64,000 bases of DNA from Raillietiella orientalis (taxonomy: Eukaryota): NCBI GenBank assembly GCA_036172245.1, contig JAYWIR010000006.1:4464001-4528000 (forward strand), read 5' to 3'. Position numbers and translations under genes: made by a program. The notes under the pieces were generated by a model that had not been told where the DNA came from, did no database searches, and saw only the letters and a list, made by a program, of their open reading frames with translations. This document shows positions 27,751 to 62,745 of this stretch, one piece after another. How positions within the stretch are numbered: position 1 is the stretch's first letter; the number at the start of each line of letters is the position of its first letter.

Positions 27751-27760
27751 CTTGAATTGA

Positions 27761-30700
27761 CACCCGGTTGCTTCGAGAAATTTATTCATATAAAATAAAG
27801 TTATAGGTCGGTGGCAGTTACACATATAAGAAGAGGAACCTGCCGACAACCGACACGCACGCCGGCGAGGTTCGCCTCGGAAACAGAGGGGGAGGGGTCA
27901 AACAAAAACAAAACTAAAACAAAGAATATACAAAAACTTTGGAGGGATCGGGAAGGGATCACGGGCTGCTGGAGGAAGTCCTCTGCATCCTTACTAGGAT
28001 GCCAACAAGTTGCTGCTCCGTCATTCAAAGATGAGGTCACCTTGAAGGTATCCTTAGGAACGGGACCGCGGAATAGATTGCGTCCCTCCTCTGGAGATGC
28101 TCCGTGCAGCCGCGATCCCACGTAGGCAGCAAAGTGCTGCCGGGGCTGCGACCGGCGTGAGGGCGTCGCTCTGGAAGAGGCTCTCCAAAACGTGTCTGGG
28201 GGTTCGCAAGAAGCGACAAAGCGCTCCCACAGGGGACGGAGGACAACACAATCCATGAGGAGGTGCTGGAGGGACTCTCTCGCGCGGCATCTGTCGTAGT
28301 TCGGGCTTGCATTCCCCAGGGTTCAATGGTGTCGGCGGGTCCTACACGGGAAGCCCAGTGCGATAGCAAGAACGCCGACTCCTAACACTTTAGGGAGAGG
28401 GTTGCACTGTCCCAACACGCTGGGGGCCACTTCTCCTCTGGAGAAGTTTGTAGCAGCTCTCCCCGGCGTAGCAGTCTTTTGGGTGGAACGCCCAGGGTGG
28501 CAGCTTCCGCCAGATCCCGAGTTGTCCACGCACCCACATTTTTCTTCTTATTTTGTATATCACACGTTACTTCCCACCATGCTGGAAGTAGGCCGTACCT
28601 TGCTTCCCGTAGGGAGGACGGCACTGGGGCAAGGGGGTGAACGACGCCCAAAGCAGATTCCTGATGCTACCCAGGATCTCCCTCAACGATTGACGGGAGT
28701 ATCTGATGTTCCGTAGGCAGATGCACTCTACCTCGCACGTGTCGTTGACTTTTCCCCATTCGAAAACGGACTCCTGGAGCCAGACAGTTCAGCTTTCGAG
28801 GAGGATGGAGATCCAGGGCTTCCAGCGGACCAAGGCAATCTTGGTAGGAGTTGGGAGCCAAGATGTCTCAGACTTCTCTAGGTGGCCACGACGACCGAGG
28901 TCAGTCCCTCTCAGCCGGTTGCTCGCTTGGTGCAGGACGCATGCCGGAGCGCACCAAGGTGTGGGCCACAACTTGGACGCAAGGACGAATCGGAAGTATG
29001 GGCCTGGAAGGACGTGAACTAATGCTGCCAATGACCATGCTGAAAAGAGTCATGCGAGGGCACTTGCAGTGAGTCAGGATCCATTGCTGGGTATTCACTC
29101 TGCAGAATTGAGCTCCAGCAGTGTAAGGTTGCGAGACATTCGGGTAGACGAAACTCTCTTGCCATCTTTAATGCTTCAGCTCACCAAAGGTTAGCCGTTT
29201 TGCCTGCGCAGACTCTTCTCTTTCAAGCACAGGGAGAATTTCAGCATCCAGGAGTTCCTTTCCAACGTGAGACCGAAAGAGAAACCGTGCCAAGAGTGGC
29301 AACCAGAAGCAAGAAGGCCTGTCGACCTGCATGAACCCTTGGAACGAGGCTGAGCGCACGATTCTCCCTCTTAGAAGATGGAGTCATCGAGTCGTTAGGC
29401 AGAATGCCATCCCCCAGAAAATGCAGGGACCCAGCAGGAGTATCTACATTGGACTGTCCAACAGGAGTGCTGAATTGAAGGAGAGGCTCGAAGGAGTTGC
29501 AAGCGCTCTCGCAACACTGGCTGCGTTATCCAAGAAAGGGCTTTGCCTCCAATCAGAGGTGCTCACGTGCCTCTTCTGCACCCAGCAACCATCCGACGTT
29601 GACAAACAGCAGTTCATGAGGATCCAGAAAGCATCTTATGAGATCGAGCGCCATGGGCGCCGCTCGTAAAATCCCTGCTCGTACTCCATACCAGAATGTG
29701 GAAGAAGGGTGAGGGTCGAAAGATGGGGATAGGAACGAGCAGGATCCAGAATTAAGGGCCTTCCAACAGTGCGCACGTGTTCAGCTAAATCTAAAAATTG
29801 ACTCATTCATCAGCCAACTGGCAACTGGATTCGAATTTGTCCTCCACAATTGTTGCGGAAGAGTTGGTCGGGTGGAAAAAGCTTTTTGAGAAGTTCGAAA
29901 CCCACGCATCAGTCCACATCAAGAAGACTGAAGAAGAGATCTTCATCCAGCTGTTGAGCCTGTTCCACGGTTTGGTTCCGAGCAGTGACTGAGCCAACCT
30001 TAAAAAAATGTCAACTAAGGAAACTGGAACTTCCCACAAACTTCACCTCTTCGTGATCTGAGTCAGAAATGGCCGGGATTGGAAGTTGACCCTCCGAGGC
30101 CCTTCCAAGAATCAGGAAGTCGGCTCCCATGGAGGTTTCCCTCCGGTTGTGAAAATAGAACCGTCCTTTTCTCTGAGGGGGAGCCTTATTGCGTACCATG
30201 AAGCTGGCTGATGTTCCCCTCAGGAGTTGGCCCTCCGGAGTGTTCAAGTGCGCTACTCCTTCCGGCGAGCGCCTTTCAGAGAAATTGGGAAGCGTCCCTT
30301 CAGGGTTGTCCTCCAAGGAGTAAACAAAAAAGGTTCCCTTGCAGGTTCCCTCTGGAGAGAAAGTTCCAGGAACGGATCCCTTTCCCTTCAGGGCAGAAAC
30401 GAGGAGCGGCCCCCAGGAACCGGAAGATTCTTTCAGAGAGAATGAAGAGTGTCCCCTTCCGGTCGGAGACAACCAGAGAGAGATTTCCTTCGGGATGTCT
30501 TCCCATACTCATAGTATGGTTGCCTCCGGAGTACCCTTTAGCTTGAAGAGTTTCTTCACACATCCTCTGGTGGTGTGGACGGTGTCAAAGAGCCTCGTGA
30601 GCCATCAGGAGGCGAGGGACGGCTCTTGAGCACTTGCTGAACCAAGAGAAAGGAAGACCCTAAAAAAAAAAGCTGGAAAGGAAACAGCGAAACGGAAGAA

Positions 30701-31750
30701 CCCCAAGAGATTTCCGTCATGTTTTTGTGGCGCACTGAAACAGCAGCGTTCTCCCCCTCAATTGACAGGGGTCGGTGTTGCTGGTGTTGAATGGGAAGAA
30801 TCCCGTGCAAAGTGCGCCTTCACCACTTCACACGGGAAAGAGTGGACTCTGAGTGAGGCAGATACGGGAAGAAGAAGGGAACCCTTCCTCACTGCCTTTC
30901 GACTTTGCTGCCCTCCGACCCCTTTAAGATCGAATCGAGATGATCCTAGGAACCTGGAGTGGACCCCGGGAACATTTTTAAACGCCTCTTAGCGTGTGCC
31001 GCACGGCCGCTAGCCGCATCTCGCAGTCCTCTGCAGTCTTCGCAGGATCACGGCGGCCTGGAACGCGGGAAGAAGAGGGATGAAATGACAAACACCATCC
31101 ATTGGGAGCGGTTCTTCCTGAGGACCACCTGGAGATGGCCCCACATGGGCGTATCCGGACGGAATTTGCCAGCATCCTGAGCAGGATGAAGAGAACGCCT
31201 GGCAGCGTACCGAGATCCTTTCCTCGATCCCTTCCCTTCCCATGTAAAATTTCCCCTTTCTGTGGTTTCCTTCTAGAAGTGTATAAGGTCGATTCTGTGC
31301 TCCTCTGCTCTCATGAGAAACGTCCAGCGTCCGTTGAAAGGACAATGGACTTGGCGATCAGCAGATGACCTGAAAGGAGTGACCTTTTGACCTTTTGACT
31401 TCGCCATGCCCAAGAAGCAAACGCGCGCCGGCGTTTGAAAGGCTGCCATCTTTATCTCAGTGCAAGAGCTCCACGAGCTTCTCCGTCTGGATGCTGACTT
31501 CGCCCTTCATCTCTCGTTCTCGTGCTATGGAGGCCCAAGTATCCGACCTTGAACTCTTCTCACGCCTCATGAGCGGCGCTACTCGGATCCCGAGGGGCGC
31601 AATATGTGCACTGTGCACCAGTAGCTCCAAAAACACCATCATGAAATTACGCAACACCTTCTCGCCTGCAATTGCACTCGTGCTCGGCGGGAAGTGACAC
31701 CACGCAATGGGAAGGTCATCAAAAGGGTTTCGTATCACTTCCTCGCCATT
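27761..31750 (-). mobile_element. Near full-length decayed L1/Tx1-like retrotransposon (ORF1-like, APE, RT, CCHC, 3' UTR)
   Basis: Motifs occur in the expected order on the minus strand: VILRRL (~31040), RFYF...ISDSDH (30050-30165), WRSIS (~29650), IALVRWK (~28830), IRNLLW (~28660), RCRARESLQHLLMDCVVLRPLWE (~28230-28290), a T-rich UTR, and the AATAAA+20-nt terminus at 27761-27786. Confidence 0.8.
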
Positions 31751-33199: not shown

Positions 33200-34747
33200 A
33201 CTGCTTGCTACTTTGGACTTGGTATTCTCAGAAGAGCTTCGAAGGCAGATTTCGGATACCCTGAGCAGAAAGATGTGGAAGTATGTGCTCCTTTCCGATG
33301 TTCTTTTCTCCAGGCTGATGGTGACTTTGCAACTGATAATACGAGACTCTGGCTCCAAACGTGGCGCAGTTCTAGGCTGCGTGGTGAGAGATCGCTTCGT
33401 CAACTAATGAAGCACCATCTGACAGCTGCGGTTTCCCACCATCCAAAACCGCCACCTGGCAATGCGGTCATCAGCAGCAACCATCAGCGTCGAATTCATT
33501 CTGATGCTCAGGTTTTATCCAGAGATGAGTCGAGAGGAACTTCCGAGATGAAATGAACCGAGAAAATTCTCTTCGCGTTTTTCTGAATAGCATGCCCGGC
33601 TTGTCGTCATGGGGATAGAGCACGGGCTTCAAGGACACCATACCGGGAGCGAACAGAGACGGAATGCTAGGCACGGGAAGACGGTCATGAGGAGGTGGAG
33701 TTCTCCCTGAAAACCTGAGAGATTCACCCCGTAGACTCGAAATGGCTCTTCCTCACTGCTCCTGGAAGGGAAGGTGGAACTAGGAAGGAGTAAAGCAGTT
33801 AAGGACGAGAGAAGGAAGGGGTCATGGAATCGAACGAAGGAAGGAACACGTTTTAATTTGCTGTGCCTCTCCGTGGTCTCTACAGCCGCAGAAACGCCAG
33901 GAAGGCACCGTCTGCACGCACCGCTGGCTTGCCGCGTACTGCAGCAGATCGAAGAGCATGTGCTGCCGGATGGTCGACGACGCGTTCCGCAGCCTGACGA
34001 CCTCCGTGCGTTCAGCGTTGGCACCTCGTTTTCGTGGAAACTGCGTTCCCGAACTGTGCCAGGTGCAGGTCGGTGGAGTCGATACTGCACCTGCTTTTGG
34101 ACTGAGACACCCTCCAGGGGCTGTGGCGGAGGCTGGAGTCAGCGTTCTTGCGCCTCAAGGACACCGTCCGCGACCTGCTGCGGCGATTCCTCACACCCGA
34201 CGGACTCTCGACCGACACGGCGATCGCACTGATGGAGCGGTTGCATCCGCTCCATCGTCGCGGCCCGCGACATGCTGGAAATGCAGACGCAGCGAAGGGA
34301 GGTCACCACGGTGGCTGACGCCTGTATGAGGAAAGCTGCAAGGTGGCCTTGCCTGGAAGAGGAATTCAGGTCGGAGATCGCCGGCAGCTGGCGCAAGTAC
34401 TGAAAAGAAGGAAAGGACGGAACCGGTTACCCCTGAGCCCATCCTCCTTTTGCTTATTGTCCCCTTATTTATTTTCGTCTTTTCCCATTCGCTCCCACTT
34501 CCGAACTTTTCTTTCTTTTTTTTTTTCTTCCTGTCTCAGGAAGGAGCGAACCAAAGACGCCTGCTCCCATCTTCCCATATTTCCATACTTATTTCTTGCC
34601 ATGTTCCTTCCGTTCCCTATTTTTAGATGTCCCAACCTGCATGTCGGTGGACCCTGCCCCTAAACTTCTTTTGCCTCCGGTTGGGAACCGAGTTCCCATT
34701 TGGTTTATTTCCTATTAAATAAACACCCCTGCGTGACCGGGTGAAAA
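33200..34747 (+). mobile_element. 5'-truncated L1/Tx1-like copy
   Basis: CARCRSVESILHLLLD*DTLQGLWRRL at 34056, DLLRRFL, ARWPCLEEE, a T-rich UTR and the conserved terminus at 34718-34747. Confidence 0.85.
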
Positions 34748-35899: not shown

Positions 35900-36545
35900 A
35901 CTGCGGGAGAGTTGAGGATGCCGCAAAACCCTCGCTATTATGAGGTCACTTGGGTTGTTGCTTGTTCTCATCTGATTTCGAAAGGTCGCACCGATTCTCT
36001 TTGCTCCCTTGCTCGCAACCCATCCTTTGTGGAGGCTGCTTGTTCCCAAGCGGACGGTGGAGACCAGCTTGTTCTTCTCCAGAACCTGGCTGGAGTTGCA
36101 ACAGCGAGTTGCGTCCCACGGTCGGGAGAATCCAGCATTCCCCGACGGCCGATGACGAAGAGACCGACGGGATGACCACGTGCCAAGAGTCCTTGAAGTC
36201 GTCGTCGATTTGCAGAGAACATTCAACTCGAACGATTAGGACGTTCCTGGACGTCTTCGCGGCCTACCTGAGCTCCAGCTGGCCCGGTGCTATTATCAAT
36301 GCCGATTTCCGGTCAGGACTTTTGGAGGCCGGAACGTTTGTGGCGCGCTAGTGCGACGCCGTATCCGGCAAGGAGACATCCCAAGACCCCTTCTCTTCAG
36401 CATCCACTTCAAGTTGGTGCTGAGGGCACACAAGGTGGCCCTTGCTATCTTGCCGAGCTCGTGCCCCGCCGGCACGGCTGCCTTGCCTACCTACGCTGAC
36501 GATCTGCTGCTGCTGCTCCACGGGTCCACCCTGGAACCAAAACTC
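35900..36545 (+). mobile_element. L1/Tx1-like RT fragment, cut off just after YADD by an opposite-strand insertion
   Basis: FLDVFAAY (~36245), IRQGDIPRPLLFSIHFKLVLRAH (36363), YADDLLLLL (36492). Confidence 0.9.
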
Positions 36546-36551
36546 GATTTT

Positions 36552-38300
36552 TACCCGGGTATGCTGGGGCGTTTATTTAGGAAATAGATAAACATTTACA
36601 AACTCTGTGGTTGAACCAGTGGTCGAACCCCTTTTTTTCTGAACTAACCTGTCGCGCTACTGGTTCGCAGACTGGTGAGTTCCACCACGACAGCAGAGGG
36701 GAAAGGACAAACAAAAAGGAAAAAAACAAAAACAAAAAATAAAAAGAAATAAACTTAGGGGTGGGTAGCATCCTTTGTTGGATGCGGGCAGGCTCTTGCT
36801 GGATGTGGCTGTTCAAGTGGGACCATCTCGATGTCATCCTCATGAATGGGACGACGAAGTGAATAGCCTCCTTAAGGAAGCGACGATGCGGCGTAGGCAG
36901 TCCAAAGCTGATGCTAGCGAGGCTGCTGACCGGAGCGCTCGCGGTCAAGGAGGGTTTTCATAGCGTCCCTGGCATTGCTGCCGGGAGTCTCTAGGGCCTC
37001 AGCAAAGCGTTCCCAGAGATGCTAGAGAACAGCACAATCCACAAGCGGGTGCGGGAGAAATTCGCTCTCCCGCATCTGCCATAGTTGGGTCCACACCTTC
37101 CCTGTGTCCAGTGATGCCAGTGGGCATTGCACGAAAGACCCCAGTGATATAGCATCAGCTCGAACTCCTGCCACTTCAAGGATAGAGTGTGGGAGTTCAA
37201 GAGCACTGGGGGCCACTGCAGTCTTTCCCAGGAATACCTAGTAGCTCTCCCGAGCGCAAAAGTCCTCAGGGTGGGGGGCACTTGGGGTCGCAGCTTTTGT
37301 GAGCTAGCCCGTCGTCCACTCTCAGAGTCCTTTTACCCTTCCGAAGATCCCATCGAGTTTCAAGGCTACGTAGGCATGCAACTAGATGGGAGTTTATTGT
37401 AAACATCATCTTGTAATTGTTCCCACAGAAAAGGAAGCAGCAAGGAGGTTCTTGGCCACGCACTCTCCGATGGGTGTTCCAGGATCTCCCTCAGCGAGCA
37501 GTTGTTGTAAAAGCAGTGGAACAAGCGCCCAGAACAGGCATGGCTCGCTGTGCTTCGCCCATGTGCGAACGGTTCCCTGCAACCAGGCACTACCGTGCGC
37601 AAAGCGACAAGAGATCCCGCTGTTGGTCCTGGTGAGCGTAGCCACTTGCCTAAGCTGCAATCCGCAGTGAGAAATGCTGCGGCGACGGCGCGCAAGGAAG
37701 GATGCGAGTCCTCCGCGGCCAGTGGCCTGCTAGGTGAGGAGGAGTGCAAGATCGCACCAGGTGATGCTGCGGGACGAGCTTGGAGATAAACAGGGCGAAG
37801 CCATCGGCGGTGGCAGTTGGTGCGTCGCTTGCTGTGGAAGCAGACCCACGACGAGTGGTTAAGAGGACATCTGCGGTCTTATGGACCGATGTAGTCTTTC
37901 CTTTCTCTGGTACTAAGAACCTGCCGATTTACAGTTTGTGGAGTGCTCGGAAAGTCGACCTATCGAGCGATGGACTGCAGCGTACCTCCGCTCGTTCATC
38001 CTAGAGAAAGGTCAAATCGCAATGTGCGGCTGTATATGCAAGCAAGAGGATCCCATGAAACCTCCAATGGTCTTCACCAACTTATTCGCTGCTTGAAGGA
38101 GAGGTCAGCAGTGCCTGGAACTACAACCGACAACACAGTGACGAGTGACAACACAGTCATGAGAAGAAAAGCCGAGCTGTCATCATCTTCACTTGAAGAT
38201 CCGGAGGTGATCTCCTGGTCTTCTGATAAGCTCGAAGATCCAATGATCCGATTGAACAGTTGGGTCTTTGATTTCATTCACATTTTCTATGCGATGCATT
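36552..38300 (-). mobile_element. 5'-truncated L1/Tx1-like copy
   Basis: ESEFLPHPLVDCAVL*HLW finger remnant at ~37010-37080, a T-rich UTR, and the terminus at 36552-36577. The 5' limit is approximate. Confidence 0.75.
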
Positions 38301-38399
38301 GCTCAAAGAAGAGACTCACTTTATAGCCCCTACCACGCCTGTGCTACATTGCAACATCCGGAACCCTTTAGCAGCAGTGACCTGAGTTTACTTTTCCTC

Positions 38400-40074
38400 G
38401 TATCCATCACTGAAGGCTGGTGATTCAGGAAGTTCTTCCTGGAAGGCTTGACATTGCTATGTGGACTTGTATTGTGAGCCAAAGATCACTGGAGAGCATC
38501 CAAGCTTGCATTCTCCTCTGGCAAAAAGAAACCACTCAGATGGGAACTTCGGCCTTCGGAAAGATTTCGTTTGCAATGACCGCAACTTTGCTGGAGGACC
38601 ATTTCCGCTCTGCATCAAGGCTCTTTATAGGAAATGGCCACAACCCCCGCACATCCTGCCTCTTTTGAACGGGAGGGATCCGGGGATGGAGTTAGAGTTG
38701 TGAAGATGGTTACACAACGCCAGAGCGAGAGAGAGGGTGGCTCAGCTGAAGATGCGTAAGTAGTGCCTCCGTGGCCTGATGGCTGCATTACTACTGCTTC
38801 GACATTTGCTGCCTTCCCTTCCTCATTCACTTCCGTGAATGACCACAGAGGTCTTTTAAGATACCAAGAAAGAGACGGGCATCGAAAAGATGCTCGGATG
38901 CTCATTAAGAGCTTGCTTGCGCATTTTGCAGTTTTTTCGGCTCTCTCCCGAGAATTGGCGCTGCAGTGGCTTTTTGCGCTCTTCCCTTGCGGAGGGAGTT
39001 CTTTGTGGTCAGACAACCCGACTTGGGACCACCTCAAGGAAGTGATCTGTGAACTCGCTGCTGACTTCACCGTCCTTCCTCCTGTTTCAGATGCTACCTT
39101 CATGAGCGCGGCTCCACCTCGGTCCTCGTTCGAATGCTCCTGTCGACCGTGTGACCAGCTGCCCGAAGTCCACCCGTGAGCCGAGATGCTGCAGGCGGCA
39201 AACTTCTCCAGTACAGGAGACAAACCCGACATCCACGCGATTCTCTGCTTTGTTTCGCTTTTATTTACGGCTGGCAGCCGTCAGCAGACTCCTCCAGAAA
39301 GCCTGCCCACGCTTTTTGTAATCTTCCTTCTGTTCCCGTCCGCCGCTTTTCCAGAATGGGGCGCGTGCATAGCCTCATCCCGAAGAGGGCTGTGTGCTAA
39401 CCGGCTGCTGTAGCTCGCTCCTGGAGTTCGCAAGCGCGTGTACATACGCCATTCCAACGGTGCCCCCTCACTTGGATGCAGGCCGTATTGCTCTTCCTCC
39501 ACTGGGGATTCCAGTGTGACGAGCGACGGCACCGGGTTTCCGGAGAGGTGGCATCCTTGAACTGTGCGAGGTGTGGGTCGGCGAAGTCGATTCCTCCGCA
39601 CCTGCTTTTGGACTGGCATCCCCTCCAAGAACTGTGGAGAAGGCTGGCATGAGCAATCCTGCACCAGGAGGACACTGCCAGAGACGGTGGAAGGAAGAAC
39701 CTGGAAGAGGAAGCCAAGGAGATCACCGACATCCACCGCCGGTTTATGGATGGTTAGGAACGGCGGACCTGGTGATTCCTATTCCCTCCCTCTCTTTATT
39801 TTTTTTACTCCCCATCTCTATTTGGTCCGTAACTTCCTCGGTGCTTTTTGTCTTCATCCCGGTGCGTCTAGAGCGAACCCAAAGATCCCTGTCCCATCCC
39901 GCCGTATCTATTTTTGGTTTTCTCCCTATCCCTTTCCTCGTTCCGGACTTTCTGTTGTCTCGGCCTGCCTTCTGGTGCTCCCCTTAAACTTCTGTGTTAG
40001 TCGGTTGGAAACGGGGTTCCCAACTGGTTGATTTTTTCATAAAATGAACTCCCCGACGTGACCAGGTGAAAAAA
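38400..40074 (+). mobile_element. 5'-truncated L1/Tx1-like copy
   Basis: CARCGSAKSIPPHLLLDWHPLQELWRRL at 39563, a T-rich UTR, and the terminus at 40043-40074. Confidence 0.8.
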
Positions 40075-40099
40075 CTTCTCTCCTGTTCCACCTAAGAAC

Positions 40100-42400: not shown

Positions 42401-42468
42401 GCCAGGAAACTTTCAATTCCAGGTTTCTTTTTCAACTTCAGAAGGCAAAGGGCGGAATCCCTCGTTTT

Positions 42469-43450
42469 CACCCGGATATGCCGGGGCATTTATTTGAGAG
42501 AAACAAAAGAACAATGAATACTTCACGTGGCGAGCCCAGGGACTCACCACTCCACGACAGCTTGCTTGGTGCCGGTGCGGAACCGGCGAGGTCCGTCCGA
42601 CGCGCGGGGGTTGGGAAAGAAAAAAAAAACAAACAAAAAGTTCAAACCTGGGAGGGCACAAATGTTTTAGGGATGGGAGGGTCCTCTAGATCCTGTTGAG
42701 GATCCTCACAAGCTGCGTCCTATCTGCGCCCAAATGGCTCCACTTGCAGACGGTTCGCACGAAAATGCGAGTCCAACTTAAGGCGTTGCCGGTTGGCTGA
42801 CGTCTTCTTCTGGTTGCGTTCCAAGCCGCCACGATCCCTCGAATGCAGCAGAGGACTGCTACACAGGCGGGCAGGGACAAGGCGTCACGACAGAAGAGGC
42901 GCCTGAAAACGTCCTTAGGGCCGCATCCGCGCAAGTCCAAAATCGCCGCAAGACGATCCCAGAGAGGGCGGAGGGCACTGCACTTAATCAGAAGGTGGGG
43001 GAATGACTCCCTCTTGGTCAGATTGTAGGGAGAACCCCCATTGAGCGCATACAGACGTGCAGTTGAGAGATCTTCCGTACACCTCGGCTTTCATGATCAC
43101 CCTCTCTGCGCTTACGCGAGTTCCGTTCCTCAGCACTCGGTGCGGTCCCACCGCGCCTCGTGTGTTCTCGAAAGATTCTCAGAAACAGGAAGAGCTCAGG
43201 CCGCTCATTGATGCCGCGTCTGGGAGCTTCCGAAGAAGTTACGTGCCAGCAAATGTTTGGCACTTTCAACGCATTCTCGACAAGCTGCTGAACACACGTG
43301 AAGGTCACCGCTGTCGATGATTCTAGTATCACGAAGAGCTTTCAAGAAGCCACTCCCATGCCGAGCATTTCGGTAGGTTTTCCACCTACACCCGGTGGTA
43401 GGGAGCTCCCGTTTCCTCAGCATTGCTGTTATGAAGCAAAGAGGAATGGG
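42469..43450 (-). mobile_element. 5'-truncated L1/Tx1-like copy
   Basis: ESFPHLLIKCSALR at ~42970-43010, AVLCCIRGIVAA (paralogous to ~28110-28150), and the terminus at 42469-42494. Confidence 0.8.
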
Positions 43451-43620
43451 AACGCGATGCAATCACCACCATCATGGAAAACAAAACGGAATGTTTCATC
43501 CAAAAGGTTTTCGAAGTTTCGAGGCACATATTTCGAGGAATTCTGGATATCTTGGGTATGTTTTTCGGAAATGCAACTAGCTGCTCCAGAAGGGCGTTTC
43601 GTGGATAAATGTGCACATAG

Positions 43621-46700: not shown

Positions 46701-46800
46701 TTTCTGAACATGCCGATGGTGTGAAGGACCACGGGTCTGGTGAGCAACGGAGAGAACAGACATTTTTATGGTTGGAACAACCAGGTCACCAATTGCGAGG
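43800..46800 (-). mobile_element. Old decayed L1/Tx1-like ORF2 remnant
   Basis: AIGDL (~46790), RWTVSLLNDY (~45900, cf. NWRPISLLNxDYK) and RDDGTF (~45410) occur in the expected order. Confidence 0.55.
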
Positions 46801-46899
46801 CTCATTTCGAAAGTAAGAGCCGATTGGATATAAAGAGAGCACACATAAAAGAAACTCTATTGCTGTTCGTTGTGTGCAATTACATAGCCTGCTTGTAAG

Positions 46900-49800
46900 G
46901 AGCTCTGGAGAGTCTTCCGCAGTTGTTATTTTCTTCTCCCCGTCTTTGCGGGGCTTCCTGGACTTGCTCGAATTCCTCTGATGGGAGAACATTGTCTAGT
47001 TGGTTGTCGGTTTTCGTTTTCACTTGGGTTGCACAGATAGCACTTGAGTACCGGATACAGATAGTCATCGTGCGGTGCCCCAGTCCCACCAGCTTCTTCT
47101 TTGGTACGCCTAAATGCTGTAATACTTGCTGTAATCACCAGGATCCCATGCTCTTAGAGAGCCGACGATGAGCGCGTGTACTGTACTTTGTTTTCCACCA
47201 TTTCTTGGTCGCATTGCTACATCCTTGTATTTTCCTTCCTTGCTCATTCCGGATGTGCTGAACGTCTTCTTTCGTAGGGGCAGCAGATGTCCAGCACACA
47301 AATCCGATCTCCTTTCTAATTAAAATCGGGTCTGGTTTTCGGCTGCAAGTGGTTCCTGGCACTCTCCGGTTTCCTGAAGCAAGACTCCACTTAGCTTCAT
47401 CCACTGCGGCCTTGCTGATGATTTCTTGGATTGCATCCTGGCGTGCCATCGTTAGAGGAACGTGCTTCTTGCATCTGTTTCGCACGTGGGACAGAGTTTC
47501 GTCCTCCATTTCACAGCGCCGACCTATTCTTTCATGTACCTTTTTTGTTGGTCCAGAGTTGAGTGGAAGTTGGGTCTTGAAGCATGGATGAACTTGTAGT
47601 CTTGGAATCTTAAGTGGATTCCGTTCGTGTGGAAGAAGCTTGAAGAGTGATGCATGCCCACACACTGCATGACTTTCCCTTGACTTCTCTGGTTTTGGAT
47701 TCGGGATTGCCCTGCGTGTTCCCTCTGCAATGCTCTCACGCCGGAGACGAGCCCTCTGCTTGCACTGCTGGCGAAGATTACGCCGTCAACCGTTATACTG
47801 GGTTCCCCTTGTTGAAACTCCTAGAGGGCTTTAATTCTTCTAGAGGCCTTCCTTCCTTGAGTCCAAATGTTCTCTGTATCACTTCTGGGTTTTGTGGTCT
47901 TCTTGCCCGTCATAAATTCCCCGAGATTCTCATCTGTCGGAGCTTCACAGTTACGTTTTTGGACGATTTCTTCCAGGGTTTCTAGTGCTACTTTCTTATA
48001 GCTTTGAAGCAGCTGTCCATGATGGAGAGGTCAGATTCACCGGCTAGCTTCATTAGTCTTAGGCAGCCTTTGGCTCTGTCTCCGTTCAAACATTCGTTAG
48101 CTGCCCAGGATGGTAGGTGTAAGGCCTTCTTTATTTTCTTTCTGATTTCTTCGTCGACATGCTGCCATTCCTCTTTTCGTTGAGTTTCCAGCCTCTAGTG
48201 ATGAACTGGGCTGGGATAGATGAAGGTTTTCAAAGAGTCCATCTTCTGCCATCCTGAGAGTTCACTCTCCAGTATGGCACTCGCCTTCTGGCAGATGTCT
48301 TTCTTGGAAGGCTGTGTTAAATACCTTTACACCGAAGGGTTTTCCAAAATACTTGTATGCCTGCGATGAGGCAATAGAAGGGGTTTTCCCTTTTTTTACC
48401 CGGATTTCCACGTCCCTTGTACGTCTCGGAATCTTGCCGCTGTACAATATCGAGGCGCATTTCGCCGGGTTGATGGATAAGCCGGCTTGCTCGACAAATA
48501 TCTGGAAATGCTCCATCCTCTCTAGGACTTGCGCTTCATCCTTTCCCAGTATGACGATGTCGTCGGCGTAGGCTAATGTCACGTCGTCCCCATAGTTTCG
48601 CCTCATCGAGCGCAGAATCGGCTCAATCGATATGATAAAAAGGAGTGAGCTTAAGGGACATCCCTGCTTCACTCCGCGCCTCACAGAGAAGGTCCAAGTT
48701 TGGGTCTCTTCCAATTGAATGAAGGTGGAATTTCCTGTATATACTTCTTCAATGATATCTATTATTTCTTTCCCGGCCCCTGCTTCCTTCCGTGTTTCCA
48801 TGATTGTGTCATGGGACACTGTGCCGAAGGCATTTGCGAAGTCTATAAATGCTGCTCAGAAGTCCTTCGACGAGAGACGTGCAGCATCCAATCTTGTTTG
48901 TAAGATGAAATTCTGTTCTAGCACTCCATCAAAGGGCAGGAAGCCCTTCTGTTGAGTGCCGATGATCGGATATAAAGAGAGCGCGGACAAAAGAAACAAA
49001 AATGCATTTGTGGTTCTAAACGCATCCATCATCGTGTCATTCTTATACTTAGTCGCCATTTTTTGGCCAAACACTTTTGACACCGTGGACGAAGCTTTTT
49101 AAAACTTTCTGCATCAAATTTCGCCACATGAGAGTTCAGACTGTTCAGCACTGCAGTTTTCTACTCCTCGTTTTCCCCTCCGAATCGCTGAGCCACTTCT
49201 TGAGGTGCAGGAAGACGTGGTAGTCACTGGGAGAGAGGTCAGGACTGTAAAGTGGGTGATCAAAAAGATATCATTTGAATTTCTGAATTGTCTGGAATGT
49301 GCGGAAAAATTTTTCTCATTTCAGCATTCCACGTGGTCGGTTCGGAATGGCACGTCGCAGTTTTCAAGGCATTTCATCACGGTAGACTTGCGAAGCGATG
49401 GTTTGTTCCAGGATCCATAAAGTCCACCAAAAGCACAACCTTTTTGGTCCCACACACTGCTGTCCGCTCATTCCAGACAATCGAGTAATTCGAATGGGAA
49501 CTTTTTCATCACCCAGATCAAGAAGTGGCTCAGGGATTCGAGGGGGGGAATGAGGAGTTGAAAACTGCAGTGCTGACCTGCCTGAGCTCACACGCGGAAG
49601 AATTTCACGTAGAGGACTTCAAAAAGGCTGTTCCACGGTGTCAAAAGTGTTTGGCAAAAAGATGGCGACTACTCAGAAAGATGATATGGGGATATTTGCG
49701 TTTAGAACCACAAATGCATTTTTGTTTCTCTTATTTGTTCTTTCCTTATAGGCGATCGACTCTTACTTTTGGAATGCGCCTCGTATGTGCGGTTGCGGTG

Positions 49801-51799: not shown

Positions 51800-52620
51800 A
51801 CTGTAGCGGACTCAACCACATGAGCTGGCGAATCTTTCCTCTTTCCAGGAAGACGAATGTTTTGAATACAGTTTGGACAGGTAAGAGGATGGCGCTCAGG
51901 CGTTCAGTTCCTTCTCCGTGTCGCCCAGTGCACGGACATCGTGAAGTTTACGGATGTGCCCAGTTTCCGCATCCTCTCGGCCCGAGCGAGGGCGGAGCTC
52001 GCCCGCCTGCGACGAGGCAGGAACGCTCGACAGTCGCTGCAGGAGATCGTATGCAACCCGCGGAAGATGCTGTGGCCCCTCGTCTACCGCCATTGCCCTG
52101 GAGGCGCCCTCCCTTTGGGAAGAAAAGGACGGCGTAATCCCAGCAAGGTGGGAAGTCATATGTTGCATTGCAGAGAAAATGAAACTTCTGGGTGCGTGGA
52201 CAACTGGACAACTTACGGGCGCTGCGACGCGGAGTGTCCCACGCAAAGGACATCTAGGTTGGGAAGAGCTGCTCACAATCCCTTGAGAGCAGGGAGAGTG
52301 GCTCTCAGCGTGCTGCAACAGTGGCGACCCCCCCTCCTTCAGAACCTGCTATGGATGCCGGTGATCTAGCTCCTGACGTCCTCTGGAATATGGGCCCACT
52401 CGGCAGCCGACGCCAAAGAACCCTGTCCCCTACCCTCCCCATATCTTTATTTCTATTTTTTATATGTGTATTTGTGGTCCCCTCTCTTCCCTTCCGGACT
52501 TTCGGTTTACCGACCTGCGTGTCGGGGATCCCTCCCTTCGTTTTTTCTGTGTCCTTTGTCCGGGAACTCTGTTCCCGGATAGTTTAGTAATGAACGCCCC
52601 GGTGCACCCGGGTGAGAAAC
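51800..52620 (+). mobile_element. 5'-truncated L1/Tx1-like copy
   Basis: HCRENET finger remnant (~52165); the 3' UTR is homologous to 62540-62745; terminus at 52589-52620. Confidence 0.75.
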
Positions 52621-52624
52621 AGTG

Positions 52625-53340
52625 GCGCCCCCCTCTCAAGTGGTAGCAGCTGGTGCTGTTGGTGGTGCATCAAGGAACCCCGTGCACAGCGCGCCTTCAC
52701 CATGGGACAGAGGGATAGCATGGATGCTAAATGAGACTTACAAAGCTGCGGACTTACAAAGGACTCGACGATCCACATTCTCAAAAGCAACTTGACGTCC
52801 AAGTTCACCAGGGTGATCGGTTGCCAGTTGCTGAGATGGCGCAAGTCTCCGCCTTTCGGCAGACGACGCACCTTCTCCGAGAGAAACGAGGCGGGAACAT
52901 CGCCCGCGTCTCTCATCAGAGACGATAGGCTCAGCATTAGGGATGCGAGTCCTGGCGCGATGCACTGGAAAAATCGCACCGGCAGCCCATGCTCGCTTGA
53001 TGCTTCCCTCCCTGGAACCCCGCGATGGCGGAAGGAGTTCCCTTCATCGTAAGGGGCTCGTCAGGACGTACGCGTTCCTCCTCGCTGATGTCAAGGTCAT
53101 CCCGCGATAGGAGCAGCCCCGAGAGACCACTTTCTATGGGCGCCTCCGCGTACAGCAACGAGTGGTAGAGCATTCCTACGCGACATAAGTCTGTCGGGGG
53201 CGAGCATTCCTGCCTGTGGGCAGGTAAGCCGTTCCAGATTGCCAGACCTGACGCTCGATTCCCGCTTTGTGCTCTTCCAGGCGCCAGAGGTCCAAGAGTG
53301 GAATAACTCCTCTCGTTCGAAGGCAGGTGGACGTTTAATT
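52625..53340 (-). mobile_element. L1/Tx1-like RT N-terminal fragment
   Basis: LPKGGDLRHLSNWQPITLVNLDVKLL in ORF 52584..52979, the canonical L1-group PK.GD...NWRPI.L.N.DYK motif. Confidence 0.9.
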
Positions 53341-53344
53341 TTAT

Positions 53345-53730
53345 CACCCTATCGCGCCGGGACGTTTATTAAATAAACAAATCAGGAACGAAGTCCCCAA
53401 TCAGGCCAACAAACAAACAGGGGAGGACAAAGAAACGCAGGCAGGGAAAACGGAAAGTCCTCAACGGGGAAAGGAACAAGGGAAGAACAAAAAAAAGAGA
53501 AACGAAAAACAAAACGTGAGGGAAGGGGCACTTTGGCGACGCTCCGCAATCACCGGGGTAAAAGCAAAAAGCGCCAAGAAAGATGAGGAGCGTAAGGAAA
53601 CGACGGATTAGAAAAAAAAAATGATACAAATTAAAATAAATAAATGAAGGGAATAAGGGGACGAGGCTCACCGCGTGCGCCGTTCCAAATTGTCCATAAA
53701 CCGGGATACCCACAGACTTCACGAACCTTG
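53345..53730 (-). mobile_element. Very short copy consisting almost only of the 3' UTR (extreme 5' truncation or SINE-like derivative)
   Basis: The reverse complement aligns by eye with the 3' UTR at 39790-40070; terminus at 53345-53370. Confidence 0.75.
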
Positions 53731-53792
53731 GCGTTCTCTTGGGGAACTTCTGCGTTGCAGAAGCGTGATCAGTCTGTCTTTCAAAGGATTCT

Positions 53793-56400
53793 CACCCCGT
53801 TGGGCAGGGGCGTTTATTTCAATGAGAAAATAAAGCTTCAAGCAAGAAGGAACGCAGTGTTCTGTGAATTAAAAAAAAAGGAAACAAAAAAAAAATTCAT
53901 CAGGGGAGGACTTGCTGACTTGCGGAGCAAACAAGTAATTGCTTGCAGAATTGTGGTAAAGGGATGAACAAATAAATAATCGACGGATGGGGATGAGGAC
54001 ACCGGGTTTGCTGTCTATCTTCTGAATTTTTCGCACGCTGTTGCTGATCTCCCTGCTGACTTCCAGATGAGGGCAGATGAGATGAGATCACCTGCATACT
54101 TTTCTTAGGTAGACCACAGCGATGCAGGCAGCCTCTCTTCACCGTCGGTGCAACTCCAACGGGTATCGGACCGTGAGAATGCGGCGGACGCAACACAAAG
54201 TCTCGATCGCAGCGGCAGGAGGGAGCACGTCTCAGCTGAAGAACGGAGCAGCAGTTCAATTGCCGTATCTTCTGGAAAGGAAGAAGAGCCGATGCCAGTC
54301 ACTCCAAGAGCGAGGATGAGGTCGCAACTCATCAGAAGGTGGGATCGCTTCGATCTCCCGGCGTCTGGCACACTCCGCAGACGCCCCCCTCCCCCCTCGT
54401 AAGATGATGCATACGTTCGTTACAGGGAAGATCCAAGTGCAAGAGAGTGCTGCACGCCGTGTTGCCACTGGAGAGGGAAGACAATTGAGTCTAAACACAG
54501 GGGGGCGGTACAGAATTCTTTTAAGAGCACACTCAAAGTTTCGCTCCCTCGGAGAATTCCCTTTGCATGTAAGCAAGCAGTAGCCTTGTTGACCAGCACC
54601 TTCGTGGAGGTTCACCTAGGAGATTTCTTACCCCTGCTATGCTGCAGGACAACTCTTATGTCGACGGTAGGCAAATTCCATGGCTTTTCCATGGAGAACC
54701 AAAAATGTGCGACCAAAAATGTGGCGGATGCAAGAGCTCAATTGGTCGTTTCGTCGATGATTCTTTGCAGGGATATCAGATCGAACCGTAAACTGGAACG
54801 GAATCTTTCGGACTAGTGCTAGTAAGAAGAGTCCAAGAATGCACACATTCCTGCCGTCATATCTGAATGCTTGGTGGGAGGCAGAGGATCCATTGCTTGG
54901 ATTGCAGCAAGGAGGCGAGCATTATGGCGCTCAAGAGAAAACCAACAGGATTCAGGAGAAATTTCAAGAGCCTCATCAGTATTCGGTTAGAAAAAGCAGG
55001 GATGTCAGTCCTTCACAACCGGATGCCCGCCGCAAAATGTGACGAGCGAGCAGACACCACTGCTGATTCCATGCTCTCTCCATCAGTGTGTCTTCGAAAA
55101 TGGAGCTGCAGTTCCAACCTTTCCAGGGTGAGGATGCCGAGCTTTGCATCCCTCCGAGGCGCATCAATGTCCTTGAGGAGGGCGCGGGGCCGCAACGAAC
55201 CCCAGAGGGTCCTCCTCAAAAGTCCGTCAGCTCGTTTGTTTCCCTCTCGCCTTGGCGAGAGGGGAACAAACAAAAAAAAACAATCGGATGAAGGGAGCCA
55301 CGAAAGAGTTCCAGATCTAGGCCCGCTTCGGCAGATAGCACCTGACTTCCAGGAGCGGGCCAAGAGTCTCCTATGCTTCTTGATGGAAGCCGGACCACAC
55401 TTCCTCAGCACAGAAGTTGCCCAATGGTACATCAATATACTTAAAGTGCCTGCCTGTGAGGATCCCCAGCAGATCCAGTCCGACTACCCCTTTAACTTCT
55501 CTCCAACCAACACGAACGTGGAATTCGCCTTGCTCACGCGCAGACCCGCTCCCGGGCTTGAAGAATTCCTTGAGCTTGGTCCGAAGTGGACCTGGGGAAC
55601 AGAAGAAGCAGATCGTGAGGGTAGACCGCCGTGGCCTGCGTGCACGGGCAGGACGTGGCAGGTTGGCCACTGTTGCCCTGTATCATCAACTCGAAGTAGA
55701 CTCTGAACAAGATGGGACAGAGGCTGTCACCTTGCCTACTTCCTTGGCGCACCGGCACGCCGTAATCGTGCCGACCGCTGAAACCAATGTTTATTAGTGC
55801 ATCGCGTCACTGCGAGTGGAAGTCCAAGGAGCTCCAGAGGGAGCTTCTGGCTCACGCAGTCGAATGCTCTGTGAAAGTCGACCGCGACTGCGAAAACACC
55901 AGGTTTTTCTTCCTGAATGCGAGTACTGTTCCCCGAGCCCTTCCGGGAGATAAGATTTCCCGAAGATAAGGGTATGATCTTATCCCCAAGTACCTCCGCT
56001 GCAACCCGCTGTTGCAACCTCATGTAGGTTCGCGTGAAAACAGATTCGTCTTCGTACTTCTTCCCGGAACAGCATAGGTCCGATCTGGACTGTTGGAGGA
56101 GTCGTCTAGCCGTCCCAACCGCGCTGTCCACATCCTGTAGACCAGCGTGACGTCCGCGCTTACCAGAGTAATCGGACGTCAACCTCTCGGGTTTCTCAAA
56201 TCTTTTTTCGGTAGGAGACGTACCTCTGTTCGACCGAAAGAAGGCTGGTAGCATGGAAACGATGGACCCACTATGTGCCAAGATTCCTCGTGGTGCATTC
56301 CTGCACGCTTTATCCTGCGACGTTGCGTTGGCAGCAAAGGACTTCTGTCTCTGCTTCCACGCAGGCAATACCGTAAGAGGAGACTTGGCTTCCCGCTGAG
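53793..56400 (-). mobile_element. L1/Tx1-like ORF2 remnant with RT, thumb, CCHC finger and 3' end
   Basis: VDFHRAFDCVSQ, GSRQGDSLCPILF, YPHDLLLL, FKYIDV, LRRTLWG...APRRDAKLGIL, HLLMSC; terminus at 53793-53818. Confidence 0.9.
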
Positions 56401-56419
56401 GCAAACTGTCTTGCTCCTG

Positions 56420-57597
56420 GAAGCCTATCCTTGGATCTTCTGCCCTCCGATAAACTCAAATAAACGGCTTTTTCTCCTGAGCTTCTACAGTGGGAATGAT
56501 TCCAGAAATACTTATTCATCTGCGATTCACAGCTTGCCATTGAAAAGTGGTCTGCAAGACACGAACAGGACTGCCAATCTGACCTTCACACCTCTTTTCG
56601 CAGCGCTGTTTGTCCTTAGGGCAAGTGACGACAGCTGTCTACCAGTGAGATAGGAGTTGTCCTGCACCATTCCAAGAAGAACGAAACTCCTATACGGATG
56701 GAAGCAGACTGAGCTGGCGGACTCCACCACTCCACGTTATAGGGGGAAGGGATTGCTTCGATGAAGCGAGCTGCTCAGAAAGACCTCCGACGAGCTTTTT
56801 GTCCCTCTTTTGTGTCTCGGCACTTCCGTGTTTTCTCTAGAGCGGAAACAGGACATCATGCTGTTTCACGTTGGGGTTTCCAGTACAACCAGCTTTGGAA
56901 CCGGATTTTCGGGGTAGTCGTGTCTCCTAACTGTTTGAGGTGCGGAGCAACTGGATCGTTCTCGCACCTCTTGCTGGACTGCACTGCTCTCCAGAAACTC
57001 TGGTGGAGGCTGAAGTTAGCACTTCTGCACACCGAAGACACTGCGACAGACTTGCTGCGGCGATTTCTTGCGATTGGTGGAGACACGAATGACGCCGCCA
57101 TAGCAACCACATGCTACATTCGTGCCATCGTTACAGTCTGCTATATGCTGGAGTCTCGAACGCAGCGAATGGAAGTCTCCAGCATCGCAGCTGTCTACCA
57201 TGAGATGGCTTATAGGTGGCCTCACCTGGAAATGGAAGTCAAAAAGGAATTCTCCTATATCCTGCAACGTTTCGAAAAGATAGGAAAGCACATTGCAATC
57301 CTTTACCCATCTTTTTTTTTTTTTTTTACAATTGTTTACTTCCCAATTATTCTTTTTCCGGTGTCCCATGAAGGAACGGAAAAATGAGAAGATCCCGCTC
57401 CTGCCTTGTAGTTTATTTTTGTTTTCCTGCCCCTATCCCTCTGTTCTGGACGTTGAGGAAACTCGTCTGACATTTCGTAGAATCCACCCCTTGAAATTCC
57501 TTTGGTCACCTTACATCGAAATCGCCGTCTCGAAGGTTCCTTTCTCATCTCAAAGGTTTAGTTTCAAAATAAAAGTTTCGGAGTAACCGGGTGCAAA
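56420..57597 (+). mobile_element. 5'-truncated L1/Tx1-like copy with the best-preserved C-terminal domain
   Basis: ORF 56761..57387: PNCLRCGATGSFSHLLLDCTALQKLWWRL...DLLRRFL...CYMLESR...MAYRWPHLE; terminus at 57568-57597. Confidence 0.88.
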
Positions 57598-57599
57598 TC

Positions 57600-60393: not shown

Positions 60394-61693
60394 CACCCTG
60401 AAATCTCGCGTATAATACGCGCATTTTTTCCCCTCAATTCAACTCGCGAGAATCAGGGAGCATATTATACAGGGTACAAAGTTCTGCTCAGTGTGCACGA
60501 GATGTACACAGTGCAACCATCTGTGTTGCGCGTTAAAGCGTCACCCGCGATCGACTTGAATTTTTTCAGTGTTCACCGTGTTAGAAATTCGGCAGAATGT
60601 GACTGACATACATTGCATGTGTGTGCGCCATTGGAGAATATCCTAAGAAAACGATTCTAACGAAATAAAGAGGCGGTGTGTGGGAGTGAACGCAAATCGT
60701 AGACTGTCACTCTATCCTTCCTCTTTTGCTACTTTGAATAAGAAAGTTAACTGAGACTCCGTTCGAATAACAGACGAAGAAAGCGTAGGATAGGAAAAGC
60801 GTAGGACAGGAAGAGCGTAGGACAGGAAGAGCGTAGGACAGGAAAAGCGTAGGACAGGAAAAGCGTAGGACAGAAAGAGTGTAGGACAGAAAGAGTGTAG
60901 GACAGAAAGAGTGTAGGACAGAAAGAGTGTAGGACAGGAAGAGCGTAGGACAGGAAAAGCGTAGGACAGGAAAAGCGTAGGACAGAAAGAGTGTAGGACA
61001 GGAAGAGCGTAGGACAGGAAAAGCGTAGGACAGGAAAAGCGTAGGACAGAAAGAGTGTAGGACAGAAATAATTCTGTCCTACGCTTTTCCTGAATCAACG
61101 AACGGAAGTCGTAGGCGAATTAAAAGCGTACTTGAAAAATGAATTCGAGAAAGGCTTAAAGAGCAGCAGAGAAGGCGTTGAAATACGCAGCATCTCGCGT
61201 CAATCGGTCGGCAAGCCTTTGTTTTTCCATCAACGGGCAAACATCCGTTTATGGGGAAAAGACAAAGAGGCACTGCGAATGTTGCCCGGTGAAGAGAAAG
61301 CAAACCGCGGATCACAACCAAGTTTTCCAGAGTTGGGGAAAACTACTGGAATAGGTGGTAGATAAAAGGCAAGAGGGCCTCGGGATTTCTCGCATCGGAA
61401 TCAGGCTTGAAGCCCTGGAATTGGAAAAGTCTCTGAAGATCAAAAAAGAATTCAAAACCTCATGGATTTATGGAGCGACGTGACCTCTTAGTATTTTCTA
61501 ATAAGATTTAAGTTTTCATTTGTATTTTTCATTGAAATTTGAAATTCTGTTAGTACTTTATGAAATTTGAAATCAAATTTTGAAAATCATGAGTGAGCAT
61601 CATACACAAAGGTTCGTTTCTTCTGAAAGTTCCTGGCCAAATCCTAGGTGAGCACTATTCGCGAGTGCGTATTACGCGCCAGATTTCACGGTA
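60394..61693. mobile_element. Non-autonomous pogo/Tc2-like (Tc1/mariner superfamily) DNA transposon, ~1.3 kb
   Basis: Terminal inverted repeats CACCCTGAAATCTCGCGTATAATACGCG (60394-60421) and, as reverse complement, TACCGTGAAATCTGGCGCGTAATACGCA (61666-61693) match 22/28. The right end is TA-CCGT type, and subterminal GNGCRTATTA-like motifs are present. Confidence 0.7.
60783..61070 (+). repeat. Minisatellite, 18 copies of a 16-bp unit GYGTAGGACAGRAARA, followed by an inverted copy (61072-61092)
   Basis: Counted directly; no spacers between units. Confidence 0.97.
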
Positions 61694-61899
61694 TGCGCAT
61701 GGTGTTCATCTCCCCTTTATCTCCTCACTGCGAGGCCCAAGGATTGATATGACGGCTCCTCGATGAATGCCACGAGGCATTTGGGTCCGCTTGGATCCCT
61801 TGCAAAATGTGCAAGTTATATCGGATGGCGTTTCGAGTGGGACGTTTGCATGTCCTTCCAGTGCCTCCCTGAAGGCACGTTGTCATTGGAAACGTGTGG

Positions 61900-62745
61900 G
61901 TTGGCTCGCGGCTTGGTAGTGGGCGCGCTCTCTCAATCAGGGTTTGATTTCTGGGAACGCGTAGGAGAGTTCGTGTGGGACGGTTGGGTTTGAGTTACAC
62001 ATTTGCAAATGAAAAAAGCAACAGTGAGGTCCGCAGAAGTCCAAATTTTGAAGGATTGATGGCGGTCACGCACACGATTTACAAATGACTGCAGAGTGGA
62101 GTTTTGATGCGACACAACAACACCAGCACAACAGCGCGCGAACATCGTTTCCGGGGAAGTTTCCCCCCGGAACTGTGGACGGTGCGGAGCAGAGGAAACG
62201 CTCCCGCACCTGCTCTTCGACTGCGATGTCCTCGGAGGTCTGTGGCGGAGGCTGGCTTCGGCGCTCCTCCACCAAGGTGGCACAACGAGGATTTTGATGC
62301 GCCGCTTCTTCACGCCAGGCGACCTGTCGTTCGGTGCGGTCGTCGCAATGATCTGTCGCATCCGCACCATCGGCACGGCCCACCGCCAGTTGGAGTCTCG
62401 TGCGACTTTTCGAGAGGTCCACCAGTTTGGCCTAGGATAATATGACGTCGGCTGCCAGGCGGTCTCATCTTCCAGAAGACAAGGAAGGAGATCTCCGGCA
62501 TTCAACGCCGCTTCTGAAAGGAAGGAATGACCGAAGCCAAAGACCTCTGTCCCCTCCCCTCCCCATATTTTCATTTATATTTTTCTATATATTCATTTGT
62601 AGTCTCCTCCCTCCCGTTCCGAACTTTCGGATTGACCGAACTACGTGTCGGGGAGCCCTCCCCCCGTGTCTCTGTAACCTTTGTCCGGGAACCTTGTTCC
62701 TGGATAGTTTTTGAATAAATGTCCCGGCGCACATGGGTGGAAAAC
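61900..62745 (+). mobile_element. 5'-truncated L1/Tx1-like copy
   Basis: PPNCGRCGAEETLPHLLFDCDVLGGLWRRL at ~62165-62255, QLESR, a T-rich UTR, and the terminus at 62714-62745. Confidence 0.88.

Follow-up and report, generated by a model that had tools for sequence, protein, structure and literature searches.

By its 3' end, a long interspersed nuclear element (LINE) can be classed as relaxed, with a long poly(A) tail or its remnant and variable ends, or as stringent, with the same terminal nucleotide in every copy, no long poly(A), and a tail that diverged lineages have kept far better than the remainder of the element. Mammalian L1 has long A tails and variable ends with 3' transduction, and it mobilizes poly(A) RNA. 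In the L2 clade, the classic stringent LINEs, eel UnaL2 and zebrafish ZfL2, possess a conserved 3' stem-loop near the end, the need for which has been shown by experiment, and a precise start without long poly(A). Silkworm SART1, a member of the R1 clade, is stringent yet A-tailed, and motifs in its 3' untranslated region (UTR) set precisely where reverse transcription starts (PMC3472496). Within the L1 clade itself, stringent LINEs with conserved hairpin tails have been published from monocots and Chlamydomonas (PMC3472496), so the premise of an earlier note on the DNA studied here, namely that L1 is relaxed, is dated. In 2012, Ohshima described a monocot L1 lineage that has a hairpin with compensatory changes and short interspersed nuclear element (SINE) partners, and reported that Chlamydomonas L1-1_CR shares ~80 nt with SINEX-3_CR; a survey of more than 800 L1-clade families turned up no more than three SINE/LINE pairs whose tails derive from L1 (PMC3472496). 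Stringent recognition was proposed to be ancestral in green-plant L1s (PMC3472496), a proposal repeated in a 2013 review (PMC3747384). In the present study, we analyzed one 64-kb stretch of the Raillietiella orientalis assembly GCA_036172245.1 (contig JAYWIR010000006.1, forward-strand positions 4,464,001 to 4,528,000; hereafter the window), in which eleven decayed copies of what appears to be an L1-type LINE family end in a shared 3' cassette; all counts given below refer to this window and these copies. The 30-nt cassette comprises a hexamer (AATAAA or AATGAA), a 20-mer ending in GGTG or GGTA, and the 4 nt after it, and positions with a plus sign are counted from GGTG. The feature is real and correctly located, and similar ones are on record from a few other L1-type elements. 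We give an even chance to the reading in which it worked in cis as the 3' terminal module of a diversified, now extinct L1-type non-long terminal repeat family with stringent-like recognition.

The pattern AATRAA-N16-GGTR matched the window 12 times against 0.30 expected, a number reached by none of 100 dinucleotide shuffles. All ten 20-mers listed in the earlier note were verified in coordinate, strand, and sequence, and a log-odds weight matrix derived from these ten sites revealed an eleventh cassette, outside its training set, which scored 26.2 bits against a null maximum of 18.5 in 50 block shuffles. Cassettes with the hexamer AATAAA lie at 27757–27786(−) (c27761m; tail TCAA; 33.5 bits), 34718–34747(+) (c34718p; tail AAAA; 40.5 bits), 36548–36577(−) (c36552m; 20-mer ending GGTA, tail AAAA; 38.2 bits), and 42465–42494(−) (c42469m; tail AAAA; 41.1 bits), while AATGAA is found at 40043–40074(+) (c40043p; tail AAAAAA, the longest A run; 36.7 bits) and in the eleventh cassette at 45670–45699(+) (c45670p; 20-mer ending GGTA, tail AAAA). 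Further cassettes occupy 53341–53370(−) (c53345m, a copy of at most ~445 nt; 36.9 bits), 53789–53818(−) (c53793m; 37.7 bits), 57568–57597(+) (c57568p; 35.1 bits), and 62714–62743(+) (c62714p; 36.1 bits), and one terminates the complete copy c52589p described below. The twelfth pattern match, at 36738(+), scored below 8 bits, sits in the A-rich antisense of another copy's UTR, and was discarded as chance. Gapped searches of the window using nhmmer --max, for which a 44-column cassette profile and profiles from two alignments of the terminal UTR served as queries, recovered the same 11 sites, the next best match having E = 2.2, and yielded no indel-bearing or degenerate further copies. Because they add no copies, the lack of indels in the cassette is not an artifact of searching with a fixed spacing, and the spacing without indels that the earlier note had reported is borne out in 11/11 copies. 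Rfam gave no match in the window at its gathering thresholds. A metagenome search for AATRAA-N3-CCCGG-N5-CCGGGTGAA returned three loci (L001–L003) without LINE protein remains and in a context unlike that of the window copies, and these were treated as chance.

Across diverged sub-lineages, the cassette has been kept better than the remaining 3' UTR. Averaged over all pairs of the ten copies in alignment A3, identity amounts to 94% in the hexamer, 65% in the 20-mer, 71% in the whole 30-nt cassette, and 43% in the 157 UTR columns upstream, and gaps occur in none of the cassette columns vs 100 of those 157. Ten of the 30 columns are invariant in all eleven copies, these being five of the six hexamer bases, GGT at 20-mer positions 17–19, and A at +3 and +4; positions 4, 6, and 16–19 of the 20-mer are kept in 10–11 of the copies, and two copies (c36552m and c45670p) end in GGTA instead of GGTG. 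The word invariant, which had been applied to the whole cassette, thus suits the spacing and these ten columns but not the 20-mer. The upstream UTRs, said to differ greatly, are indeed divergent, yet they are still homologous, with a T-rich tract and CCTGCGTGTCGG-like, CCTCCCC, and GTTCC motifs in common. A tail kept well above the rest is also known from the monocot 1a lineage (LINE1-1_ZM with ZmSINE2 and ZmSINE3), where divergence is 0.144 in the last 45 nt vs 0.570 overall (PMC3472496). The pattern might have arisen with no functional constraint at all, through shared ancestry, a lower rate of decay at A/T sites, and ascertainment by fixed spacing: the copies are decayed, many changes in the GC-rich arms are transitions, an A/T-only hexamer may simply mutate more slowly, and the search behind the earlier note was blind to gapped copies. 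We consider this improbable, given that the gapped profile searches add nothing, that the adjacent UTR is equally old and nonetheless poorly conserved and full of indels, and that the cassette is about level with the best coding segments, which are 66–75% identical by blastn.

As to variation within the hexamer, the sole change in 66 hexamer positions is from A to G at position 4, giving AATGAA, and it is seen three times (40043, 45670, and 52589, all on the plus strand) in copies that belong to different sub-lineages. AATAAA, in contrast, is found in c62714p, the copy most closely related to c52589p (80% identical), and AATGAA might have originated by recurrent mutation or by alternation in master copies.

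Downstream of GGTG or GGTA, 2 to 6 A-rich bases are present in all eleven copies, and A makes up a fraction of 0.84 of the bases from +1 to +4 and 0.21–0.25 from +5 to +40, the window background being 0.233. From +5 on, the mean pairwise identity of the flanks is 0.25–0.26. Neither a long poly(A) nor an eroded A-rich remnant was found in the 11 copies, none of which has more than six A's, so the statement in the earlier note that no long poly(A) and at most six A's follow the cassette applies to every copy. The eleven copies also end at the same terminal nucleotide, as is typical of the stringent type, and among them there is no transduced or shared 3' flank and no read-through end; the long poly(A) or remnant and the variable ends of the relaxed type are thus not seen. 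Since the flanks are random from +5 on, the motif does not run on into shared flanking sequence, and the cassette is the end of the element and not its target site. That it is the true 3' end follows from these random flanks, from the colinear coding homology upstream, and from the target-site duplication of c52589p.

The copy c52589p is complete but 5'-truncated, a 281-nt insert at 52337–52617(+) that ends in GGGTG at 52614 and the tail AGA, and it is flanked by an 18–20 bp direct repeat starting with AACAG. The two arms of this duplication, identified in the sequence by local alignment, lie at 52317–52336(+) and 52618–52635(+), so that only the 3 nt of AGA separate GGTG from the second arm, and their alignment score of 30 compares with a maximum of 23 in 40 shuffles. 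The host L1 is contiguous across the insert: in the coordinates of other copies, its left flank stops ~632 nt and its right flank resumes ~627–610 nt from the end. Because the matches to the host resume in this way, c52589p is an insertion nested within an older L1 fragment and has a genuine target-site duplication, and its 5' truncation and duplication at an A-rich site are as expected of the L1 clade, in which duplications vary in length. In the other ten copies no duplication stands clearly above shuffles, the nearest scores being 24 vs a null maximum of 23 for c42469m and 22 vs 22 for c45670p. The family resembles mammalian L1 in such truncation, in nested insertion, and in a target-site duplication starting with A, as well as in AATAAA near the end and a C-terminal CCHC motif; the long A tails, the variable ends with 3' transduction, and the poly(A) RNA mobilization of mammalian L1 have left no sign in the eleven copies.

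The same data bear on whether the motif is merely a preferred insertion site of a site-specific, Tx1-type element. The A's at +3 and +4 in every copy are in keeping with that idea, and a short A-rich target preference probably contributes to them. Elements of the Tx1 group, however, use one specific target, whereas here flank identity is at chance from +5, UTR homology is continuous into the cassette from upstream, and in c52589p the cassette lies between the two arms of the duplication, within the insert; we regard a target-site origin as barely credible. SART1 is of a different clade, is site-specific in telomeric repeats, and has a longer poly(A) (PMC3472496).

Several arrangements around these ends may be recorded. 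The older L1(+) fragment split by c52589p comprises 52007–52336 and 52618–52715, and a minus-strand reverse transcriptase (RT) fragment at 52719–53048 follows directly, which implies that the older copy itself was broken or rearranged. In the 3' flank of c53345m, the segment 53317–53341(−), AATTAAACGTCCACCTGCC, resembles the cassette start of c53793m; when aligned, the two score 19, less than the maximum of 22 in shuffles, and the likeness may be due to chance. Judging from coordinates alone, three pairs of copies lie tail to tail (34747/36548, 40074/42465, and 52617/53341), 0.7–2.4 kb apart.

The affiliation of the family was sought in its coding remains. When 4-kb regions in element sense were compared by tblastx, colinear L1-type C-terminal coding homology was found 350–750 nt from the end in 8/11 copies. 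An intact C-x2-C-x8-H-x4-C motif, at the C terminus of ORF2, survives in two of the eleven, at 56932–56982(+) in c57568p, 611 nt before the end of the copy, and at 62174–62224(+) in c62714p. The C-terminal CCHC zinc knuckle of the L1 clade is therefore present, and the matches of these remains to Pfam zf-RVT are sub-threshold (E = 0.011 and 16.8 bits for c57568p, E = 0.0042 and 18.2 bits for c62714p, below the cut-off of 27.5 bits), the Pfam run having used stop-free pieces of open reading frames (ORFs). For an intact C-terminal ORF of 214 aa, the nearest ESM Atlas clusters are zf-RVT (score 0.94), which we take as a lead only, and a comparison with 1.84 billion representative proteins gave one weak match (E = 5e-5). 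Weak RT remains were detected by tblastn upstream of c53793m at 55543–56310(−) (E = 1.8e-6 to P0089 and 2.8e-5 to P0046) and at 52719–52913(−) (E = 3.6e-5); they match best three query LINE proteins that have zf-RVT, of which P0046 and P0064 also have Exo_endo_phos. Pfam RVT_1 was not found in cassette-bearing copies at E ≤ 0.01 among 148 ORFs, the single match belonging to a different LINE. Exo_endo_phos was not found in 148 + 41 + 52 ORFs, and tblastn and phmmer searches with LINE proteins that carry APE did not reveal it either; as the copies are heavily degraded or 5'-truncated, this absence is uninformative. On the strength of the C-terminal coding remains, the cassette-bearing copies are assigned to an L1-type family. 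Of the label L1/Tx1-like in the earlier note, the first half is supported by that homology, and the second, as far as Tx1-like site specificity is meant, is not supported, the flanks being unrelated from +5 on.

The eleventh copy, c45670p, is a special case. It shares only ~34 nt with the other copies (the A3 profile matches 45665–45698 only), and no upstream tblastx homology to them was found. Either 5' truncation has left this copy very short, or its cassette sits on unrelated sequence, and it may be a truncated copy of roughly 35 nt flanked by AAAAAC.

It is in the RNA structure of the terminus that stringent-like recognition meets with contrary evidence. The earlier note had described the 20-mer as a hairpin, and this found no support in the comparison with shuffled partners: a stem of positions 4–8 with 14–18 pairs in 85.5% of cells vs 85.1% after shuffling, and 286 of 500 shuffles equal it. 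This 5-bp stem contains a single double change, and no covariation was detected in it when partners were shuffled among copies. An alternative register, positions 1–5 with 16–20, pairs in 89.1% of cells, so that two registers fit about equally, and the RNAalifold consensus of the 20-mer has three pairs at −1.35 kcal/mol. Folded alone, one of the eleven 20-mers beats 95% of its shuffles, with one more at 0.07. Variation among the copies is largely post-insertion decay and has little power either way. These points weigh against stringent-like recognition, as do the absence, within the 64-kb window, of a demonstrated non-autonomous partner with the same tail and the consideration that 3'-end processing by itself could account for the conservation of hexamer, spacer, and end. 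A terminal hairpin may still form in the least decayed copies, for which folds of −8 to −10 kcal/mol are predicted, and it is unproven. The monocot 1a lineage is likewise of the L1 clade and has a predicted tail hairpin that has been read as a sign of stringent recognition (PMC3472496); its hairpin shows compensatory changes, and it has SINE partners and poly(A) repeats (PMC3472496; PMC3747384), whereas the terminal stem here is without covariation, no partner is shown in the window, and the A run is 1–6 nt. UnaL2 and ZfL2 share with the present family a precise start without long poly(A), but they belong to a different clade and have short terminal repeats, for example (TGTAA)n; in these elements the loop is kept while the stem varies, in contrast to the present 20-mer, in which the arms are kept and the loop varies.

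Structure is more apparent slightly upstream. The terminal 120 nt have negative z values in 8/11 copies, with a mean of about −0.8 against dinucleotide shuffles. A hairpin that we call H2 lies 33–68 nt from the end and was assessed in the 8/11 copies that have GTTCC there; in c52589p it occupies 52558–52580(+) with a 10-bp stem, a 3-nt loop, and the core GGGAAC-N3-GTTCCC, and its equivalents are at 34679–34701(+), 40003–40025(+), 53380–53402(−), and 62683–62705(+). In these eight copies, its covariation score is 0.357 vs 0.167 ± 0.038, a value reached by none of 500 shuffles, and it pairs in 73.8% of cells vs 64.3% for shuffled partners (also reached by 0/500) and at most 51.3% for slid partners; three pairs are changed on both sides, such as CC/GG vs TT/AA. 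On the debit side of the same reading, the eight rows were chosen for GTTCC at that very place and two of them are close relatives, and two robust measures, the pair and type counts, are not significant (144/500 and 84/500). Covariation in H2 is accordingly best called suggestive. In 9/11 copies, the local minimum free energy (MFE) fold has the hexamer paired to an upstream (G)UUUAUUU, and a mean of 4.18 of its six bases are paired vs 1.58 in shuffles; the energies of this hairpin are weak (mean −2.25 vs −1.29 kcal/mol, with one of 11 copies individually below 5%), and we regard it as a lead only. A long-range helix between the CCTGCGTGTCGG motif and the terminal 20-mer, which appeared in two MFE folds, was rejected, as the duplex energies of cognate pairs (−16.55) and non-cognate pairs (−16.45) are equal (permutation p = 0.45).

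If the cassette is indeed a cis-acting module, its action might be as follows. AAUAAA or AAUGAA would direct cleavage and polyadenylation ~20 nt downstream, just after GGUG, and the ORF2 protein of the element would then hold the structured end of the UTR, the candidate elements for such binding being the GGGAAC-N3-GUUCCC hairpin and the terminal 20-mer, which is rich in GC and has a nearly invariant GGGU. Synthesis of cDNA would begin within the initial A's, with a nicked target whose end pairs with them as the primer, a suggestion based on the one verified duplication, which starts with AA. The outcome would be a stringent-like initiation at a fixed position, in which almost no poly(A) is copied and no 3' transduction takes place. 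The stringent, structure-defined 3' end suggested in the earlier note is to this extent supported by a fixed end, a conserved module, and few A's, while the part of that claim which rested on the terminal hairpin is not, given the lack of covariation.

The precise end and the near absence of an A tail, with only 1–6 A between GGTG and target DNA, fit such stringent-like initiation but do not set it apart from a pure 3'-processing signal. The family might have been a relaxed, poly(A)-primed L1, in which the cassette was a processing unit only, composed of hexamer, fixed spacer, and cleavage site, with the 20-mer or hairpin unrecognized by RT; the short A run would then result from priming at the start of the tail or from short tails in the host. 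Poly(A) signals usually lie 10–30 nt from the site of cleavage, a range that includes the 20-nt distance found here, and it is the hexamer that is the best conserved part of the cassette and the terminal stem that lacks covariation. A published parallel exists in Chlamydomonas L1-1_CR, the tail of which has the host signal TGTAA ~15 nt before the A tail (PMC3472496 and its supplement). A spacer, however, needs length only, yet 20-mer positions 4, 6, and 16–19 are kept in nearly all copies without a single indel; cleavage sites normally scatter by a few nucleotides, yet 11/11 copies end at the same base; and neither read-through or transduced ends nor an A-rich remnant beyond +4 to +6 has been seen. 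Taking both sides together, we hold a role in processing alone, the strongest of the alternatives, to be possible though rather doubtful. The present family and the L1-1_CR/SINEX-3_CR pair are alike in being L1-clade systems with a defined tail and a host-type poly(A) signal at a fixed short distance before the A's (PMC3472496). L1-1_CR differs in having a poly(A) repeat and a SINE that shares ~80 nt, and the signal and tail sequences are not the same (PMC3472496); the hexamer here is AATAAA or AATGAA, and the tail is nearly absent.

The remainder of the window differs in composition and content. Its GC content is ~52% beside a block of 63–65% GC at 1–16000 and 20001–24000, and the CpG observed/expected ratio ranges from 0.57 to 0.99, values that speak against a vertebrate genome with heavy CpG methylation. 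Many old, inactive LINEs are reported from the coccidian Sarcocystis neurona (PMC4337577; PMC9141347), and nothing was found that links the window to it. Within the GC-rich block the ratio is 0.84–0.97, no Pfam family was found in 52 ORFs of at least 150 aa, and short stretches resemble the LINE region (for example, 4483–4652 vs 30194–30358 and 6847–7007 vs 36363–36534); after the block, GC drops to 41% and the CpG ratio to 0.57. A direct repeat of 144 nt and 87% identity (19770–19913 vs 20663–20794) lies in an AT-richer stretch. A different, much better preserved LINE is located at 47021–48972(−), with Pfam RVT_1 at 48265–48855(−) (E = 1e-22) and C-terminal remains at 47138–47785(−); the proteins most closely related to it stem from metagenomes and EukProt and have RVT_1 only. 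No cassette follows this LINE, and its 3' end was not recognized in 46300–47200. An inverted repeat of 240 nt and 77.5% identity (48964–49203 vs 49757–49518) adjoins it. In the body region upstream of c62714p, a tandem array at 60782–61065 consists of 17.8 copies of the 16-nt unit AGCGTAGGACAGGAAG with 93% matches.

With regard to precedent, CCGGGTG and GGGTGAAAA are absent from seven supplementary files of PMC3472496 (file 1 being outside the search), and a full-text literature search for CCGGGTGAAAA, AATAAACGCCCC, and CCCGGGTGAAA gave no retrotransposon paper among the 10 listed of 16 matches, as judged from titles and the beginnings of abstracts. The tail may already be catalogued in Repbase or Dfam. 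The present findings leave current concepts unchanged, and the claim is unproven as far as structure is concerned. In practical terms, AATRAA-N16-GGTR followed by A's would provide a simple marker by which strongly decayed copies in this genome could be annotated with their ends and orientation. It is still debatable whether recognition of the 3' end by its sequence is ancestral in the L1 clade (PMC3472496), and a further L1-type family with a fixed end, a conserved module, and a near-absent A tail would be a data point for that question. The composition of the window is neither vertebrate-like nor chlorophyte-like, and the hexamer is of the AAUAAA type. We put forward, with considerable reserve, the suggestion that the family represents an L1-clade lineage outside green plants with stringent, structure-guided 3'-end recognition, in which the poly(A) hexamer sits in a small hairpin and reverse transcription has one fixed start nucleotide. 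If true, this would extend the proposal of Ohshima, such that stringent recognition would be ancestral to the whole L1 clade and recognition of poly(A) only would be a derived state.

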